From Eledone cirrhosa (Eukaryota): DNA of 64,000 nt. Each line of letters opens with the position of its first letter. The stretch's first letter is position 1. The stretch spans positions 14,570,001 through 14,634,000 of the forward strand of contig OZ024747.1 in assembly GCA_964016885.1 (NCBI GenBank), in the 5' to 3' direction. The position numbers and the translations under genes were made by a program. Below are positions 4,489 through 54,146 of this stretch, in pieces. The notes below the pieces were generated by a model. The model worked only from the letters and a program-made list of their open reading frames with translations, was not told the origin of the DNA and made no database searches.

Positions 4489-4520
<32 letters not shown>

Positions 4521-4524
<4 letters not shown>

Positions 4525-4719
4525 AACAAATAAGTCCCCGACGGCTGCGCTCAAGCCGTTTCGACGGCTAATTCTGGACTGCAGTCCAGAATTATCCGTC
4601 GAAACGGCTTGAGCTCAGCCGTCGGGGTCTTACTTGTTCCTATTACCCACTCTACTACCCTAAGTATTGAGTACTTTGGTGCGTTATGGTCCACCTGGTT
4701 CCTTACCACATTTCCTTCG

Positions 4720-4721
<2 letters not shown>
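4521..4721 (+). mobile_element. Hairpin element family X, copy 1 (Penelope-like-derived; 3' half of a hammerhead)
   Basis: Palindrome 4521-4643 plus 78-nt tail, in (TA)n; GAAA (4601) + stem III ACGGCT/AGCCGT + GTC (4621-4623); same element at 8495 and 23436. Confidence 0.8.
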
Positions 4722-4766
<45 letters not shown>

Positions 4767-4972: not shown

Positions 4973-5342
4973 ATATTATTCAAAATGTTAACAAATGAAA
5001 AATATTCACATAATCAAAATATATACTTTATTATATATATTTCAAAGGTACTGTGCTGTGTTTTTCAGTACGTCCTCATCAGACAAAATATATGATTTGA
5101 TATATGACATATCGCTACGGTCTTGATTATTCAATTCTCGTCCTGGCAGATGAAGATGTACTGAAAAAAACAGCACAGTACCTTTGAAATATATATAATA
5201 AAGTATATATTCTGATTATGCGAATATTTGTCATTTGTTAACATTTTGAATAATATTAAAAACACCAGGAAAACTAACTGTTGAGTGCTTCTATTGTAAA
5301 ACTGTATTCGTTGAGTAATTAACAAACCATATTAATCTTTGG

Positions 5343-7689: not shown

Positions 7690-7882
7690 GGCGGTGAATT
7701 GGCAGTATCAGTAGAGGGTCGGACGTGTCATGCTTTCTAGCATAGTTACGTCCCTTTACGGTCTGAGTTCAAATTCCGTTGTGGTTAACTTTGCCTTTCA
7801 TCCTTACGGGGTCGATAAAATAAAGTACCTGTAATGCACTGAGATAATTGCTGGCCTTGTGCCCAAAGTAGAAACAAATATT
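7690..7882 (+). mobile_element. SINE family A, full length
   Basis: GGCGGTGAATTGGCAGTATC...GAGTTCAAATTCC...GTAGAAACAAATATT. Confidence 0.9.
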
Positions 7883-7883
7883 A

Positions 7884-7962
7884 ATTGTTTCTACCTTTGC
7901 CACAAGGCCAGCAATTACCCAGTGCATTACGTCCGACCCTCTACCGATACTGCCAATCCACC
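7884..7962 (-). mobile_element. SINE family A, internally deleted, tail-to-tail with the previous copy
   Basis: 3' end (AATTGTTTCTAC..CAGTGCATTAC) joined directly to the 5' head (GTCCGACCCTCTACCGATACTGCCAATCCACC). Confidence 0.8.
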
Positions 7963-8494: not shown

Positions 8495-8496
<2 letters not shown>

Positions 8497-8674
8497 GGAA
8501 CGAGTAGGACCCCGACGGCTGAGCTCAAGCCGTTTCGACGGCTAATTAGCCGTCGAAACGGCTTGAGCTCAGCCGTCGGGGTCCTACCCGTTCCTATTAC
8601 CCACTCTACTACCCTAAGTATTGAGTACTTTGGTGCGTTATGGTCCATCTGGTTCCTTACCACATTTCCTTCGT

Positions 8675-8675
<1 letters not shown>
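8495..8675 (+). mobile_element. Hairpin element family X, copy 2
   Basis: Palindrome 8495-8597 centred on CGGCTAATTAGCCG plus the same tail as copy 1; in (TA)n. Confidence 0.85.
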
Positions 8676-22369: not shown

Positions 22370-23060
22370 ATTGGCTGTATCGGTGGAGGGTCGGACGCCA
22401 TGCTTTTCAGCATAGTTACGTCCCTTTACGGTCTGAGTTCAAATCCCGTCGAGGTTAAATTTGCCTTTCCTCCTTACGGGGTCGATAAAATAAAGTACCA
22501 GTCATGCACTGGCTAATTGCTGGCCTTGTGCCAAAAGTAGAAACAGTTATTTATTGGATAGACCCCCACACATCGGGTATAGCGTCCATCATTGTTTGAT
22601 CTTACTGCAGCAACTAGTGCAATATACAAATTGTTTGTAAATATAATTGTTTCTACTTTTGGCACAAGGCCAGCAATTATCCCAGTGTATTACTGGTACT
22701 TTATTTTATCGACCTCGTAAGGATAATGCACGGTAAGAATAAACGAGATAAACGAGATAAATTGATAATTTAATTATAAAAGTGCGATTATATTATATTT
22801 GCATCATAGAATGCGTTTGAGTAAAAATTTACAATGTTTTAATAGTAAATCTAATTAGGATAGATTGATATATAATTGTTTCTACTTTAGGCACAAGGCC
22901 AGCAATTACCCAGTGCATTACTGGTACTTTATTTTATCGACCCCGTAAGGATGAAAGGCAAAGTCAACCTCGGCGGGATTTGAACTCAGATCATAAAGGG
23001 ACGTAACTATGCTGGAAAGCATGGCGTCCGACCCTCTACCGATACAGCCAATCCACCGCC
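22370..23060. mobile_element. Cluster of three SINE-A copies (22370-22550 +, 22644-22724 - partial, 22873-23060 - full)
   Basis: Matches to consensus in both orientations. Confidence 0.85.
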
Positions 23061-23435: not shown

Positions 23436-23737
<302 letters not shown>

Positions 23738-30310: not shown

Positions 30311-30896
30311 AAATAATTTTCGCTCTACATGGCTGAATACAATGAATGTAATCTGAGTTTTTCGAATATTAATAATAATATTAGATTCGTTTGCAATTAT
30401 GCAAACAAGCCTAATTTTTAAAACCATATCAGTAGAATGAGCCCCTCATTCTTGCTCTTATGCTGGCATGTGAACAGAATTGCAGACACTAATGTTTCTG
30501 GGTATTACTCTTCATCAGTACAGTCCACTGTTCACCTAACAACTGTCAGAGCTAGTGAAAATATATATACTATTTTCGAAAATATACAGTGACTGATCGG
30601 CCTGATTTGCATATTAACAGACTCGCTGATCAATCATATCTGCATATTAGCAGATCTACTGATCAGCCAGATTTGCATATGGGCGGACTGGCCAGTCAAT
30701 TTCCTGTATACGAGCGATCAATGACCGGCTTTGACATATTCAAATAAAAAATTTTAATATTTGTTTACATGCCAACCCAAGAGCAATAATGAGGGGCTCA
30801 TTCTACTGACATGGCTTTAAAAATGAGGCTCGTTTGCATAATTGCAAACGAATCAAATATTATTATTTATATTCGTAAAACTCAGATTACATTTAG
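30311..30896 (-). mobile_element. Inverted-repeat + tail element with HHR (family W)
   Basis: Arms 30345-30476 and 30762-30893 are diverged reverse complements; ~35-nt tail on the left; (TA)n on both sides. Confidence 0.75.
30481..30522 (-). ncRNA. Type-I hammerhead ribozyme fold with degenerate stem II
   Basis: Minus strand: TGTA-CTGATGA-agagtaataccca-GAA-ACA ttag TGT-C-TGCA. GUC triplet, stem III ACA/TGT, stem I TGTA/TGCA. Confidence 0.7.
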
Positions 30897-41092: not shown

Positions 41093-41427
41093 ATTTATAA
41101 CAGATCCTTAACTATCTGTAAATAGGCGTTATTCATATGCAGAAACCTAGTAAAATACCCAGTATATATGTATAATTTTACAAACTGAGACGATATCACA
41201 GCTTGCAATGAAGACATAACAGTATACTATCAATGAGCAACATCACAACATACACATTACAAACCACTTAAACACATACATACGTGCAAGATTCCTGCTT
41301 ATAAACGCCACAGATCTACAATTCTCCAGCTTTCTTCAAATGCGGTGTCTCACAAGTCTAGTTTTCCTATAATAGCGATCACGGGTTCATAATACAGCTA
41401 CGGCTTCCCAGTAAAAGGAAGCAACAG

Positions 41428-43168
41428 TTTTTCGACACGAAGCACGAAGGCTGCGTTGTCAGAAGCAAAATACGTGCTCTAGGAAACGAGGGGGCGACAG
41501 CTGTTAGCTGGGCCCGCGTGACAGAAGCCAAAAGTGGGATTAAATCCACTATCCGGTCTTTGAAGGACCAGGATGGACGGGTGATCCTTGAACCTGGACA
41601 GATGTGTGACGCCTTTCAAAGGCACTTTGCACGACTGTTCGGGAGGGGTGGGGTCCGGATGGGGATGGGGATTTCGGTCCATACCTCGACGGCCTACCGC
41701 GTCTTTCGAACGAGGAGGCGAAGTCCCGCGAAAGGCCGATTTCAGCTGCTGAAATAGGGGACGTACTGAGGCAATGCAGCAAACGTAAATCCCGGGTCTC
41801 GATGGTCTACCATACAAACTTTATGTAGCGATGCCGGACTTTTTCTCCCATCTCCTCGAGGCGGTCTACTGCAACTGGCAACAGAACGGGAGAATTCCCT
41901 GTTCTGTGACCAAGGGCGTAGTCTCGCTAGTGAGGAAGGACGAGAACAAGTGGGATGAAATAAGTAATTTCAGGCCCATAAATCTGCTAAATGCGGAGTT
42001 AAAGATTTTGGCCAAGGTGTTAGCAAAGAGGTTGGCGCTTGTCGTGGGCAACCTGGTGGGAGATGCGCAGACATGCGCTATCACGTCCAGGTCCATTCAC
42101 GACAACCTCCACCTTATGCGATAAGGTAATTCTCACCGGTCAACCGGTGTGGGCCCCATTTGTGAGGCGAGCCTTTCCGAGACTCGTCTCGCTTACCGAG
42201 CTGCAATCCTGGGTCAAGCAAAAACCGAGAAAACTGGGCTCCTGGCACACGGAGTGTGCTCAGGCGCTCACGGCTCTCTGGCAGGCGGACCCAGCTATCA
42301 GTGGAGACTCCACCTCGACATTCCATAGAGGGTTGATCAGCAGCAGTTGCGACGACACCACCGGAGTAGCCCTAGGCATGGGCGAGGAAGAACTGGCCAG
42401 CTTGTTCGGTAGGACATTTGGCCCGGGACCGATGGACAACTTCCAGAAGTCCCTGGCCTGGCAGTGCTACCGTGGGGCTCTGCCCGTTTGAGACAAGCTC
42501 TACAGACACGGGCGCCCACGTAGGGACCCTTTGAAAAAGATCTGTCCGAGATGCGTGCGCGGCAAGGAAACCGTAGCGCACGCATTGGTACACTGCCCGG
42601 GCGTTGCTGACTTGTGGGGCTATGTGGAACGACTGATGTCACGGGTGGGACCAATCCGGTTGACCACCGAGTCCATCGTTACGATCAAATCGCCTCCCTC
42701 CTTCTAAAAGGAAGGAGAGGCGGTCTTCCTCTGTGTAATAGCCATGGTGAAAGAGGTTGTATGGTGGACGCGTTTGAAAGAAATACGGTCGGACGCCTTT
42801 CTCTCCGGCCAACAACTGGTCCTTTTCTTCCGATATCATTTCGGAAGAAGGATCAGGATGGAGAGAGAGGTGCTCCACCCCAGCCAGTTTTATGAAAGGT
42901 GGGTGAAAGTGGCGAATATGGCCCGTGTGAATGGTCCTTCTCTCTACATCAGCCTGTAGATGGAAAGAATAGCAGAAGGGAGCACCCTCTATTTGTGCTC
43001 CCGAGGAGAAGGGTTGCACATTCTTTCGGGGGGTGTGCGACCAATTGAGGACTTCGATTGTTCTATTTTGTTTGTTATATTTTTGTGCTCGTTTTATTGT
43101 ATGTAAACTTCCCTCCCTTTGTATTTGTCCCAATCTTTTATGCCCTGGTGGCAAATAAATAGAAAGTT
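41428..43168 (+). pseudogene. Tx1-clade LINE copy A: 5'-truncated ORF2 remnant with ~0.9-kb internal deletion of the RT core; (CTAT)n tail
   Basis: Paralogous to 43635-46270; FRPINLLNAELKILAKVLAKRL..IHDNLHLMR joins directly to ..LTGQPVW at ~42122; CPRC..ETVAHALVHC zinc knuckle; frameshifts and stops; AATAAA then CTAT repeats. Confidence 0.9.
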
Positions 43169-43204
43169 ATCTATCTATCTATCTAACTATCTATCTGTCT
43201 GTCT

Positions 43205-46200
43205 GCAGCGGAACATCTAGATTGTACCTAGATAGTGTTCTAGTTAGAAAGAAGGATAGGGACATGTTAAGCTGTCCACAAATGTTCATGGTTGCCTATT
43301 CAGATCACAAATTAGTGACCAGATTAGTCAACCTTGACAAAACCCATAGACAGGGACCCGGCTACTGGAAGCTGAGCTCATCGTTACCGATATGCAAAGC
43401 CTTCAGTAGACGGATTAGCACTTTAGTTAAGCAGCTCTTGACAGGGGCCATTGTCAACAACAGATGGTGGTACTCTCTCAAGAGGGCAGTTAGATTAGAC
43501 TCGATAGGTTTTAGTAAAGAATTTGTGTTAGATAGAAATAAGACCGAAAAGGAACTGGTAGATAAAGTAGAAGAGGCACCTAGGAGTGGAAACGTAGCCA
43601 GCGTGCTAGCGACGATAACGGCCTTGGACGAGTTCTTCGACGCAAAGCATGAAGGCTGCGTTGTCAGAAGCAAAATACGTGCTCTTGGAAATGAGGGAGC
43701 TAAAGCTGTTAGCTGGGCCCGAGTGACGGAGGCGAAAAGTGGCAACAATTCCACGATTCGGTCTTTGAAGGACCAAGACGGACGCGTGATACGTGAGCCG
43801 AAGCAAATATGCGCGGCCTTTCAGCGGCACTTTGCTCAACTGTTCGGGCAGGGCGGCGCGCCAGGAGGGTCTATGGATTTCGGTTCATACCTCGACGGCC
43901 TACCGCGACTCTCGGACAGCGAGGCCAAGTTCTGCGAAGGGCTGATTTCGGCCGCTGAGATAGGGGACGCGCTGAGCCAATGCGGCAAACGCAAACCTCC
44001 AAGTCTCGACGGTCTACCCAACGAATTTTACGTAGCAATGCCGGACTTGTTCTCCGGTCTCCTGGAAGCCGTCTACTTCAACTGGCAGCAGAACCGGAGA
44101 ATTCCCAGTTCTGTGACCAAGGGCGTAATCACGTTAGTCAGGAAGGACGAGAACAAGGGGGATGACATAGGCAACTTCCGGCCCATAACTCTGCTCAACA
44201 CAGAGTTACAGATTTTGGCCAAGGTGTTGGCAAAGAGGCTGGCGCTTGTCGTCGAAAACCTGGTGGGAGAAGCGCAGACATGCGCAATCACGACCAGATC
44301 GATAGACAAAAACCTCCACCTCATGCGATACATCATAGAGAGGGTATGGTGTAAACCTAGCTTCGGTGGGGCCCTGATCAACTTGGATCAGTCTAAGGCT
44401 TTCGATAGGGTTGACCATCGTTACCTGGACGCGGTGCTCGAGGCGGCAGGCTTCGGTCCCGTGTTCAGAGACTGGATTGCTGCAATGCACAACAGCAACA
44501 TCTGCTCAAGGGTCAAGGTGAACGGCTACCTCTCGGAGCCGTTCCATATCACGCGATCCATCCGACAGGGAAGCCCTCTCTCCTCCCTTCTGTACGCACT
44601 GACTCTCGAGCCACTACTGCGGAAGTTGGAGCTATTGCGGGGCATCCCTTTTGAACCGGGACTGCGAAAAGCGGCGGCGGCCTACGCCGACGACGTGACA
44701 GTAATGGTGTCGAGAACCTCGCAAATTGGGGAGATCGGCACCTTACTGGAGGAATACGAAAGGTTCACAGGAGCGAAGCTGAATCGGGACAAATCCGTCG
44801 GTTTGCAACTCGGAACGTGGAGAGGCAAACCGATGCCTTCCGATTACGTCGTCGGACGATGGACGGAAGTACCGGTAAAGCTGCTCGGGGTCTGGTTTGA
44901 TCCTGACCTTCAGGTGGAGAACTGAAACGAGGTGACAGCCAAGGTGTTTGCGCTCATCCAGGAGTGGGCCGAGTGCAAACTATCCTTGAAAGGTCGAGCG
45001 GAGGTGGCGAACACTTTTATAGCGTCCGTCATCTACTACCGCTTGATCGTTGTGCCTTGTCCAGCCAAAACGCGCACCAAAATGGAGCGCGCGCTCTTCC
45101 AATTCCTTTGGAAGAAACGGGCTCCTTTAGTGAGAAGATCCATCTGCTGCCTACACCCTTCAAACGGAGGGCTGGGGATGGTGTGGCTGACGATGCGCAA
45201 ACACGCGCTCAGGCTGCGGCACCTCCACGTATTTCTCACCAGACAACCGGTGTGAGCCTCGTTCGTGAGGCGAGCCTTCCCACGACTCGTCTCGCTGACC
45301 GAGCTACAGACCTGGGTTAAGCAAAGACCGAGGAAAATGGGCGACTGGCATATCGGATGTGCTCAGGCGCTCACAGTCCTCTGGCAAACGGACCTGGCGA
45401 TCAGTGGAGACTCCACTTCGACATTCTATAGAGGGTTGGTCCACAGTAAGTGCGACAACACGCTCGGAGAAACTCTATGCGTAAAGGAGGACGAACTGGC
45501 CATTCTGTTCGGTAGGACCTTCCGCCCGGGACCAATGGACAACTTCCAAAAGTGCTTGGCCTGGCAGTGCTACCGAGGAGCTCTACCAGTTCGAGACAAG
45601 CTCTACAGACACGGGTGCCCGGGTAGGGACCCTTCGAAAAAGATCTGTCCGAGATGCGTGCGCGACGAGGAAACCGTTGCACACGCATTTGTACACTGCC
45701 CGGGCGTTACCGACCTGTAGGGCTATGTAGAACGACTATTGTCACGGGTGGGACCAATCCAGTTGACCACCAAATCCATTGTCATGATCAAACCGCCACC
45801 CTCCTTCAAAAACGAGGGAGAGGCGGTTTTCCTATGTGTTACGGCTATGATGAAAGAGGTTATATGGTGGACGAGGTTAAAAGGGCTGAGGTCAGATACC
45901 TTTCTCTCCGGAGAGGAACTGATTCGTTTTTTCAAATATCATTTTGGAAGAAGAATCAGGATGGAGAGAGAGGTGCTGTACCCCAGCAAATTTTATAAAA
46001 GGTGGGTGAATGTGGCAAAGATGGCCCAAGCCTGTAGCTTGAGGAAAAAGAGGAAGAGAGGAAGAGAGTACTCACTCTTGGTGCTCCTGGAGATGAGGGT
46101 TGTACATTTGTCGGGGTGTGTACAACCCCTGTGTAACACCTCCCCCTATTGGGGATTTCAATTGTTATTTGTTATTGTATTAATAGTTTTATTTTCATAT

Positions 46201-46268
46201 ACCTGTATGTAAACTCCTCATTTGTATTTGTCCCCTTCTTTTGTGCCCTTGTGGCTAATAAAGACATT
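43205..46268 (+). pseudogene. Tx1-clade LINE copy B: ORF2 (APE endonuclease C-terminus, reverse transcriptase, CCHC knuckle), one frame with three premature stops, plus 3'UTR
   Basis: YLD..SDH (APE end), GPGYWKL (Tx1 linker), LDGLPNEFY, FRPITLLN, LDQSKAFDRVDH, RQGSPLS, AYADDV, GGLG, CPRC..HAFVHC. ORFs 43222, 44932, 45265 and 45739 are all in the same frame. 17-bp TSD TATCTATCTGTCTGTCT at 43188-43204 and 46269-46285. Confidence 0.95.
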
Positions 46269-46599
46269 TATCTATCTGTCTGTCTATTTTTCTCGTTCTC
46301 ATACACATATATTGTTTATTCACTTAATAGTGTTGATGTGTAACTAGTAAATTAATGAAGAACATAGTACATTCTATTCCGCGAAGTATTGAGTAGTTTT
46401 CTTTGTATATGTAAGTTTCGTTCTCATGAAAAAATAAATACAAACATTTCCCCAGTTTCCAGCTACCAAAGTTAACCTGCGGTGTATTCATGAACTCAAT
46501 ACTATATTAGAATACACGTGTACTAGATGCCTTGCAGTGAAATCGACCACGGACCACCGTAGTTTCAAGGCGGACGTTTTAACCACACAAACACGCGTG

Positions 46600-47939: not shown

Positions 47940-48960
47940 TCGCTGGTCGCCGTTTGCTAGACGCGTCTTTCTCCAGCTCATCTCCTTGTCGGAGACCGAG
48001 AGGGAGTACTTGGTAACTGGAATGTCTTCAGGTGCTCACAGCCCTCGACCAGTCGGACAATGTGATCGGTGGAAACTCCATCTTGGCGTTCTATAGAAGA
48101 TTAGTAGAGGGGAAGAGCGACGACGTACTTGGAGAAACTCTAGGCGTCGACGAAAATCAACTAGCCAATCTCTTCGGAAGAACTTTCGGGCCGGGGCCTA
48201 TGGACAACTTCCAGAAATCCCTGGCCTGGCAGTGCTACTGAGGAGTTTGCCAGCTCGGGATAAACTCTACAGGCATGGAGGTGCCGTCAGCCGGGCATGT
48301 CCGAGATGCGCGCAGGGCGACGAAACCGTCCTGCACGCATTCGTCCAGTGTCCGAGCATTGCTTATTTGCGGGTTTATGTCGAACACCTGCTGTCACGTG
48401 TAGGACGGATCCAGCTATCAGCTGAGTCCATCGTGAGGATTGCCCCGCCCTCTTCATTTAGCCGGGAAGGGCAGGCAGTTTTTATCTGTCTGGTGGCCAT
48501 GGCGAAAGAGATAGTATGGTGGACACGTTTGAAAGGGCTGAAGACGAGCACTTACCTCTTCGGTGATGCCCTGATTAACTTTTTCAAATTTCATTTGAAA
48601 AAGGAAAATCAGGGTAGAGCGGGAAGTGCTCTCTTCCCAGCATTTTGTTGAAAGATGGATGAGAGAAGCAAGTATGGCCCGAGTGAATGGGCCTACTCTG
48701 AGTACGTGTCTTTAAATTAAAGGTGGAAAACTGGGAGAGGGCACTTGCCCTAGTGGTCACGGTCACTGTGGCCTTTTACTGGGCTTTCTCCACAAATGTC
48801 CCTCGGAAGTCTCCCCCCTATTGGGGAATTTTTCATTGTTATTTTTTATTACATCCTCTGTTTTTTTTACACGAAGAAATGTCCATTTGTACCGTCCTGT
48901 ATTGTCCTGTACTGTCCTTAATGTCTACTTTATGTAAACCCTTGTGGTTAATAAAGGAAT
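47940..48960 (+). pseudogene. Tx1-clade LINE copy C (different subfamily), 3' part of ORF2 + 3'UTR, (TTA)n tail
   Basis: FGRTFGPGPMDNFQKSLAWQCY..RDKLYRHG..CPRC..HAFVQC..KEIVWWTRLKG; ends AATAAA then (TTA/CTA)n; 3'UTR shared with 241-700. Confidence 0.9.
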
Positions 48961-49374
48961 CATTATTATTACTATTATTATTATTACTATTATTATTATT
49001 ACTATTATTATTATTACTATTATTACTATATATATATGAGTGTGTGCGTGTTTGTATGTATGCACATCCATGCGCATTCAGCTTCGTATATGTGGGAATA
49101 CATAACATTTATTTGCCTAAAACTACATATGCCTTGTTTGCAAAGTTCAATTTTATACGCATGGGCAAATAATATGCTGTTGTAACATTCGTTACACACA
49201 TGATTATCAGATTCATGTAAAATAACAACACGATCTTGTCTTGTACAGGAAGTAATCTTTAATCAAATGCCAATAATTAGATACAAATATATTTAACCCA
49301 CCACGTTCACCTACAAAACAAGACACACACAAACACATACGCACACAAATGCACACACAAACACACAAACACAC

Positions 49375-53710: not shown

Positions 53711-54146
53711 TTATAGATAGTGGTGTGTATAAGATGTGTGAGATGTGTAGAATGAAGGGAAGATTAGAAGAATAAAAATAATAATAACAATACAAGAGAG
53801 AGAGTTACCTTGGGAGAGATTTAATAGTCCCTATATATTTCGGATTCACATCCATCAACTGGGGTTTTTTCCGGGGTGGGGGAAAAGGTTGTCTGTCGGA
53901 CAACTCGGAACTCTCTCTCTTGTGTTGTTATTATTATTTTTATTCTTCTACTCTTCCCTTCATTCTACACATCTCACACATCTTATACACACCACGCATC
54001 TCAACGTACACCCACTTACATATCTCTCTCTCCACCACCGGACCTTGTTACCCGGAGATTTACCCATTTGCATTGTCGAGGCTTCCAAACGACTTATAAA
54101 TATTTACTTATTGTTCCACAATGCTTCAAGCAAACTTCAATACTCT

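Follow-up and report, generated by a model that had tools for sequence, protein, structure and literature searches.

In a 64-kb stretch of the Eledone cirrhosa genome (the window), we found three short palindromic units that are the shortest insertion form of a Penelope-like retrotransposon, probably generated by twin priming, run-off of both cDNAs at the 5′ end of the RNA and head-to-head joining of the two products. The first of these stubs, read from the sequence as a 120-bp palindrome with 4 mismatched pairs at window 4522-4641, is extended by an 80-nt tail to 4721, giving a unit of 200 bp between (AT)n runs. Two further stubs lie at 8496-8675 and 23437-23613, and each unit comprises 177-200 bp, with a palindrome of 97-120 bp followed by the 80-nt tail on the right. 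An initial annotation had described three copies with different centres, and the palindromes and their centres were found at all three places. Its reading of the right arm as the 3′ half of a hammerhead ribozyme also holds, as the 3′ strand of stem II, GAAA, stem III, GUC and the 3′ strand of stem I are all present; the 5′ core and the 5′ strands of stems I and II are missing from all three stubs. Element positions count as +1 the A of the hammerhead loop II motif T[T/C]AGTC (L191:1259; window 4583). The features of the window copies are as follows.

4493..4521, unstranded: (AT)n target microsatellite, left flank (sequence; family ends abut AT runs in independent reads)
4522..4581, minus strand: inverted arm, element +59 (short end) back to -1, presumably cDNA from the proximal short start site (junction mapping)
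4582..4721, plus strand: forward arm, -1 to the long (tail) end, presumably cDNA from the long start site (junction mapping)
4582..4587, plus strand: junction hot spot in hammerhead loop II, +1 being the A at 4583 (conservation in 90 parents; end distribution)
4593..4600, plus strand: 3′ strand of hammerhead stem II, with one substitution at 4595 (parent alignment)
4601..4623, plus strand: GAAA core and stem III, then the predicted GUC cleavage triplet, which would be cut after 4623, +41 (parent structure)
4624..4628, plus strand: 3′ strand of hammerhead stem I (parent structure)
4642..4721, plus strand: 80-nt tail, present in one arm only (comparison with parents L191, L196 and others)
4722..4762, unstranded: (AT)n target microsatellite, right flank (sequence)
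8496..8675, plus strand: second stub, both arms ending at +8 with a 4-nt overlap (junction mapping)
23437..23613, plus strand: third stub, short arm ending at +7 and tail arm at +15 (junction mapping)

In the first copy both arms stop at -1, 11 nt 5′ of the 3′ strand of stem II. The outer ends of the stubs are fixed at +59 and about +141, both internal sites of the element, and 56 of 65 fold-backs combine one short end with one tail end. Loose family ends also abut AT runs in independent reads (L191:1319 and 1399). The family is abundant: within the window a 13-mer core is matched 6 times where 0.13 matches are expected, and across the 3.0-Gb genome an arm 32-mer has 20,808 exact matches, a tail 22-mer has 27,821 matches and the fold-back pattern, defined by two exact 14-mers, occurs at no fewer than 16,017 sites. 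The stubs are themselves probably inert, and they supply the genome with a minimum of 16,000 near-perfect DNA hairpins. Raw reads of three other samples also contain strand-switch joints of the stub kind, which makes an artefact of assembly unlikely. Read pile-ups in RAD libraries at L191:1266, 1255 and 1207 were set aside, as they lie at or beside AATT sites and are likely to be restriction cuts.

The initial annotation had taken the palindrome to be a retrotransposition product of a hammerhead-bearing parent, and such parents were found. On the strength of its protein motifs, the parent is a Penelope-like retrotransposon of the EN+ type with the protein motifs of the Hydra clade. One parent (L102) has a 710-aa RT and GIY-YIG frame, a tail-bearing forward arm and a 1,866-bp inverted arm without tail; the frame has no Pfam match at E<=0.1, and its assignment rests on YRDD and a C-terminal VIY...YIG. 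Its protein has DKT at residue 109 in place of DKG, and a CxCX5C linker, CxxC and CxH at residues 564, 662 and 690, with no match to a CCHH-like motif. Section 11 of PMC8557442 describes the Hydra clade, including DKT, CxCX5C, CxxC and CxH, and the likeness extends to the lack of CCHH, the (TA)n target of the parent insertions and the hammerhead. In this motif-based comparison the parent differs in having RWR (residue 27) where the clade has RWK, a unit of about 3.5 kb against less than 3 kb, a U3-A8 or C3/A8 ribozyme core and a loop II of about 39 nt. A partial pLTR tandem, an inverted 5′-truncated copy and a tail at one end were all found in the parent family, and in the ORF-start copies the tail runs on into the 5′ UTR and the ORF, with an ATG at about +236. 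Four ORF-start copies within 60 kb (L322-L325; G000:C20, 16.25-16.32 Mb) have the same +86 junction and are likely to be a segmental or tandem duplication of one insertion. Elsewhere, L093:5388-6176 is a retrozyme-like head-to-tail tandem of 207-231-bp units with the ribozyme 3′ half.

Among the first 30 loci examined, 9 are non-folded, and their common upstream sequence completes a type I hammerhead motif: stem I is followed by a core that reads UUGANAA or CUGANAA, then by stem II, which closes a loop of about 39 nt, and by GAAA, stem III and GUC. Genome-wide, 3,552 sites match the 5′ half. The expectation of parents with a 5′ core upstream is therefore borne out, but the canonical CUGANGA (C3-G8) core that had been predicted occurs in 0 of 90 distinct parent copies, where UUGANAA (U3-A8) is found in 58 and CUGANAA, with a C3/A8 mismatch, in 31. 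The U3-A8 core is a variant described from Penelope elements (PMC4209133, in the part available). When the named hammerhead structure was placed on 10 parents, 96% of cells were paired, compared with 17-54% when it was slid; in the parent alignment helix 2 is paired in 100% of cells and helix 1 in 98%. Covariation is no higher than in shuffles (57/500 and 208/500), and Rfam gives no hammerhead match in the window or four parent loci, its matches there being microsatellite or hairpin matches to microRNA models. The GACGG..CCGTC hairpin annotated as stem II has to be given up: its GACGG strand merely mirrors the right arm, and the true partner of the 3′ strand, CGGCUA, lies about 39 nt upstream in the parents and is absent from the stubs. 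The predicted cut site at +40..+43 is the 5′ end of 4 of 57 ORF-bearing copies (L194, L311, L328 and L181), against 0.5 expected (p=0.002). These copy ends may be an indirect sign of hammerhead cleavage in vivo, and they suggest that the 5′ ends of RNAs can leave marks as copy ends.

All 100 tail sites listed in the first 24.7 Mb of C1 were mapped, exact tail matches only being used. Their tail arms end beyond +46 in 16 cases, at +40..+46 in 4, at +19..+39 in 11, within the 3′ strand of stem II (+9..+18) in 8, at -4..+8 in 49 and at -10..-5 in 4, and the remaining 8 read through. Counted by insertion, the 5′-most end falls at -10..+8 in 61 of 100 and at -45..-11 in none. Exact-match mapping of 65 fold-backs placed the end of the longer arm at +1/+2 in 26 and at +3..+8 in 19; a further 12 reach -1..-4, and none ends at -5..-45. 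A further sample on C7 (264 kb, 18 sites) gave 7 ends at -4..+8, 0 read-throughs and 11 shorter or unresolved arms. Of 10 stub-type strand-switch joints in independent runs, 9 have one end at +1..+7, and the summed depth of contigs in run X1 drops by about 30-fold from one side of +1 to the other. A few junctions sit deeper in loop II (L099, L307, L166, L272 and L280), and at site 493017 (L035) a stub arm from -1 is joined, as read by eye, to forward 3′ UTR from further upstream, as expected of a template jump after run-off.

When this part of the RNA is met a second time, it is usually crossed. Of 61 tail arms reaching +8 on a first pass, 53 end at -10..+8 and 8 read through (two of these being one insertion), whereas among all 89 ORF-start copies found, 50 reach loop II again; 47 of them continue past it and 3 end there, one of these having been reassigned by eye (Fisher p=3e-19). 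Long arms also pair with long arms: head-to-head pairs within 8 kb occur for 48 of the 100 listed 5′-core matches, against 13% expected if arms were independent, and there is 1 tail-to-tail pair among them. Because second passes read through and long arms pair, the stop is set by the template rather than by chance stalling. Either arm can extend further: at 38 clean junctions this is the short arm in 15 cases and the tail arm in 18, with 5 ties; the excess is at least 3 nt in 9 short and 14 tail arms, and in long copies it reaches kilobases in both directions. Arms share a subfamily signature in 48 of 50 stubs (28% by chance), although this concordance may be inflated by conversion within palindromes, so both arms were usually copied from one RNA or one source. 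In L059 and L029 the two arms of one stub have different subfamily signatures, which suggests two RNA templates in one insertion.

The site at which the arms end is itself conserved. Over the subfamilies of the 90 distinct parent copies, positions -4..+9 are kept and the upstream loop varies, although part of this variation reflects shifts in length, the profile being unaligned. In a diverged family TTAGT lies equally far from GAAA, and both of its stubs seen (2/2) join at the same +1. The motif T[T/C]A+1GT looks initiator-like, and we take T[T/C]AGTC at +1 to resemble the invertebrate initiator; by eye against the consensus, no canonical DPE was seen at +28..+33. From this motif and the arm ends, +1 is likely to be the transcription start and hence the RNA 5′ end. 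Penelope pLTRs hold internal promoters of the initiator type, according to the accessible portions of PMC2377424 and PMC3846280. Beyond +1, T runs of 4-17 were seen by eye in 11 of 25 T-preceded truncated arms, against 3 in the parents, which fits untemplated A-tailing of the finished cDNA. A G that might derive from a cap occupies -1 in 13-14 of the 64 arms compared, though the partner arm can account for 6 of these.

The order of events that we favour would be as follows. The transcript would start at about +1 in the upstream pLTR, inside hammerhead loop II; the element protein would cut both strands of an (AT)n target, one cut end would prime at +59 and the other at +141, and both cDNAs would run off the RNA 5′ end. 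End joining would then trim or A-tail the cDNA ends and join them head to head. We infer priming on both strands by analogy with the Penelope enzyme of the anole, for which cutting and extension take place on both strands of the target, with two internal start sites that bracket the tail (PMC11167929, in the part available). The parentage, the outer ends at +59 and about +141, the sharp -1/+2 boundary, the second-pass read-through, the pairing of long arms with long arms and the fact that either arm may be the longer are seen directly. Against run-off, a common full-length RNA started at this promoter predicts more full-length copies ending at +1 than the 3 of 50 that do so, and the model would therefore need a cutting step by the downstream hammerhead. 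A +1 transcript would lack the ribozyme 5′ half at its front, and the complete downstream hammerhead would presumably cut off the distal start sites. The cut transcript would yield only stubs, and long copies would come from read-through, longer or circular RNAs; circular RNAs have been proposed as a source for such copies (PMC4209133, in the part available). More tentatively, the hammerhead may be a switch, in which mRNA from the loop II promoter gives strong-stop stubs and read-through RNAs, cut by two ribozymes and circularised, give full copies, twin priming being obligatory; this extended reading is possible but doubtful. If it were true, the stubs across the genome would preserve, as fossils, a map of where the RNAs of the element had their 5′ ends.

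The initial annotation proposed that the enzyme stalls in stem II and that the self-complementary cDNA ends anneal there, with the fold exactly at the stem. Junctions do cluster within about 15 nt of stem II and a 4-nt overlap occurs in 6 of 65 fold-backs. The enzyme, however, copies 3′ to 5′, so such a stall should end arms at or 3′ of +11..+18, whereas the mode lies about 10 nt further 5′, in loop II; 8 of 100 tail arms end in the 3′ strand of the stem against 49 at -4..+8, and the main class ends only once copying has passed the 3′ strands of stems I, III and II. The same RNA is crossed in 47 of 50 second passes, and the proposed stem is the mirror artefact noted above. Annealing of the ends must be minor, since the overlap is 0-1 nt in 33 of 65 and never more than 4 nt. 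We therefore regard the stall in stem II as scarcely credible, although the initial annotation was right that the junctions are not scattered. A roadblock in loop II, in which a bound protein or a weak inner hairpin stops both enzymes in one RNA-protein conformational class with no RNA end involved, is unlikely but deserves more weight. In both parents folded (2/2), the region of about -21..+5 is predicted to form a weak inner hairpin with +1 in its 3′ strand, and a roadblock would explain the scarcity of full-length copies ending at +1. It accords poorly with the 47 of 50 second passes that cross the same sequence, with A-run additions that begin right at +1, and with the diverged family, in which a different loop stops at the same +1 (2 stubs).

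It is also rather improbable, somewhat more so than a roadblock, that the stubs are a self-propagating non-autonomous family, short RNAs from stub centres or 3′ pLTRs serving as templates and the palindrome being rebuilt at each insertion. This would need no cleavage step, and it would suit the greater number of stubs than of 5′-core copies (16,017 palindromes against 3,552 core matches) and the one signature that is commonest among stub arms (50/152), whose stem III variant accompanies it in only 1 of 48 parent segments; that variant does, however, occur in a long copy, and stubs are without the sequence 3′ of the tail that the anole enzyme required in vitro (PMC11167929, in the part available). 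A single cDNA that snaps back and copies itself is very unlikely, even though self-priming on an antisense template is the published proposal for the inverted junction (PMC3846280, in the part available), the arms agree in subfamily signature in 48 of 50 stubs and a few centres are perfect palindromes. Since either arm can be the longer, by at least 3 nt at the clean junctions and by kilobases in long copies, each may hold sequence missing from the other, which disfavours a single snap-back, and the discordant arms in 2 of 50 stubs weigh in the same direction. Least probable apart from the stall in stem II is a boundary made by a splice acceptor or by later collapse of long palindromes. The +1 motif does read as an acceptor (T[T/C]AG|T), with a pyrimidine tract and AG, and an intron that ends close to the ribozyme is described from other Penelope elements (PMC4209133, in the part available); yet the arms retain the AG (modes +1 and +2), have no upstream exon in common and, in the reads, no skip joint to +3 is listed. 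Collapse would not produce a one-base boundary with A-tails, and long head-to-head palindromes of kilobases persist at 98% identity.

In LINE-1 twin priming, two primers per insertion give an inverted 5′ part, and the second primer anneals at variable internal sites. Stubs differ in having two fixed starts and in that one and the same segment of RNA is covered by both arms. Close relatives are the EN+ Penelope-like insertion units, which consist of a pLTR, an adjacent inverted 5′-truncated copy and a single terminal tail (Craig et al. 2021, PMC8557442; Arkhipova et al. 2013, PMC3846280; both in the parts available). They resemble the family studied here in their head-to-head arms, one-end tail, partial tandems, microsatellite target and pLTR hammerhead, and on this structural comparison the stub is the known unit of inverted copy plus tail at minimal size. 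In contrast to those published descriptions, the tail is about 80 nt rather than 30-40, and most copies are 200-bp stubs with inner ends piled at one site. The anole Poseidon element PAc, studied in vitro (Frangieh et al. 2024, PMC11167929), is likewise similar in its two internal RT starts bracketing the tail, its AT-rich target and its hammerhead upstream of the start sites; it belongs to another clade, and head-to-head joining and a run-off hot spot are not described in the available part of that paper. Non-LTR retrozymes (PMC7229834; bioRxiv 10.64898/2026.07.22.740005) are also short, non-coding, hammerhead-derived, of high copy number and kin of Penelope pLTRs, but in the accessible text they are head-to-tail tandems with whole ribozymes, whereas stubs are single head-to-head units with the 3′ half only.

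The family, the anatomy and the two start sites are already known. In a literature search with thin coverage of subscription journals and of Repbase reports, no description of a fixed inner run-off stop or of stub-dominated families was found, and neither appears in the available parts of PMC7229834, PMC13282606 or bioRxiv 10.64898/2026.07.22.740005. How Penelope inverted and tandem ends form, and what the hammerhead does, are stated as open questions in the accessible part of PMC8557442. With stubs numbering in the tens of thousands, the statistics of their junctions speak for two-primer synthesis rather than the published self-priming, and they point to one base as the RNA start. Joining at a fixed RNA end would explain how Penelope-like elements build mirror-image ends.

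The window holds several other elements. At 4973-5256 lies a second, unrelated head-to-head element with arms about 83% alike, whose left arm, in minus-strand orientation, shows a CUGAUGA core and after it a long stem II and GAAA; it probably represents a further Penelope family with a hammerhead. A GC-rich LINE-like ORF is present as two partial tandem copies at 41426-46286, with RT motifs in a 588-aa frame at 43159-44925 and further pieces at 246-766 and 48019-49029. A 190-bp SINE-like repeat, present in about 15 copies between 1810 and 55219, has about 50 nt in common with the Penelope parent 3′ UTR and forms short fold-backs at 7831-7930 and 22471-22723. Finally, long terminal inverted arms are found at 30345-30893 and 53720-53995 (132 bp at 91% and 87 bp at 98%).
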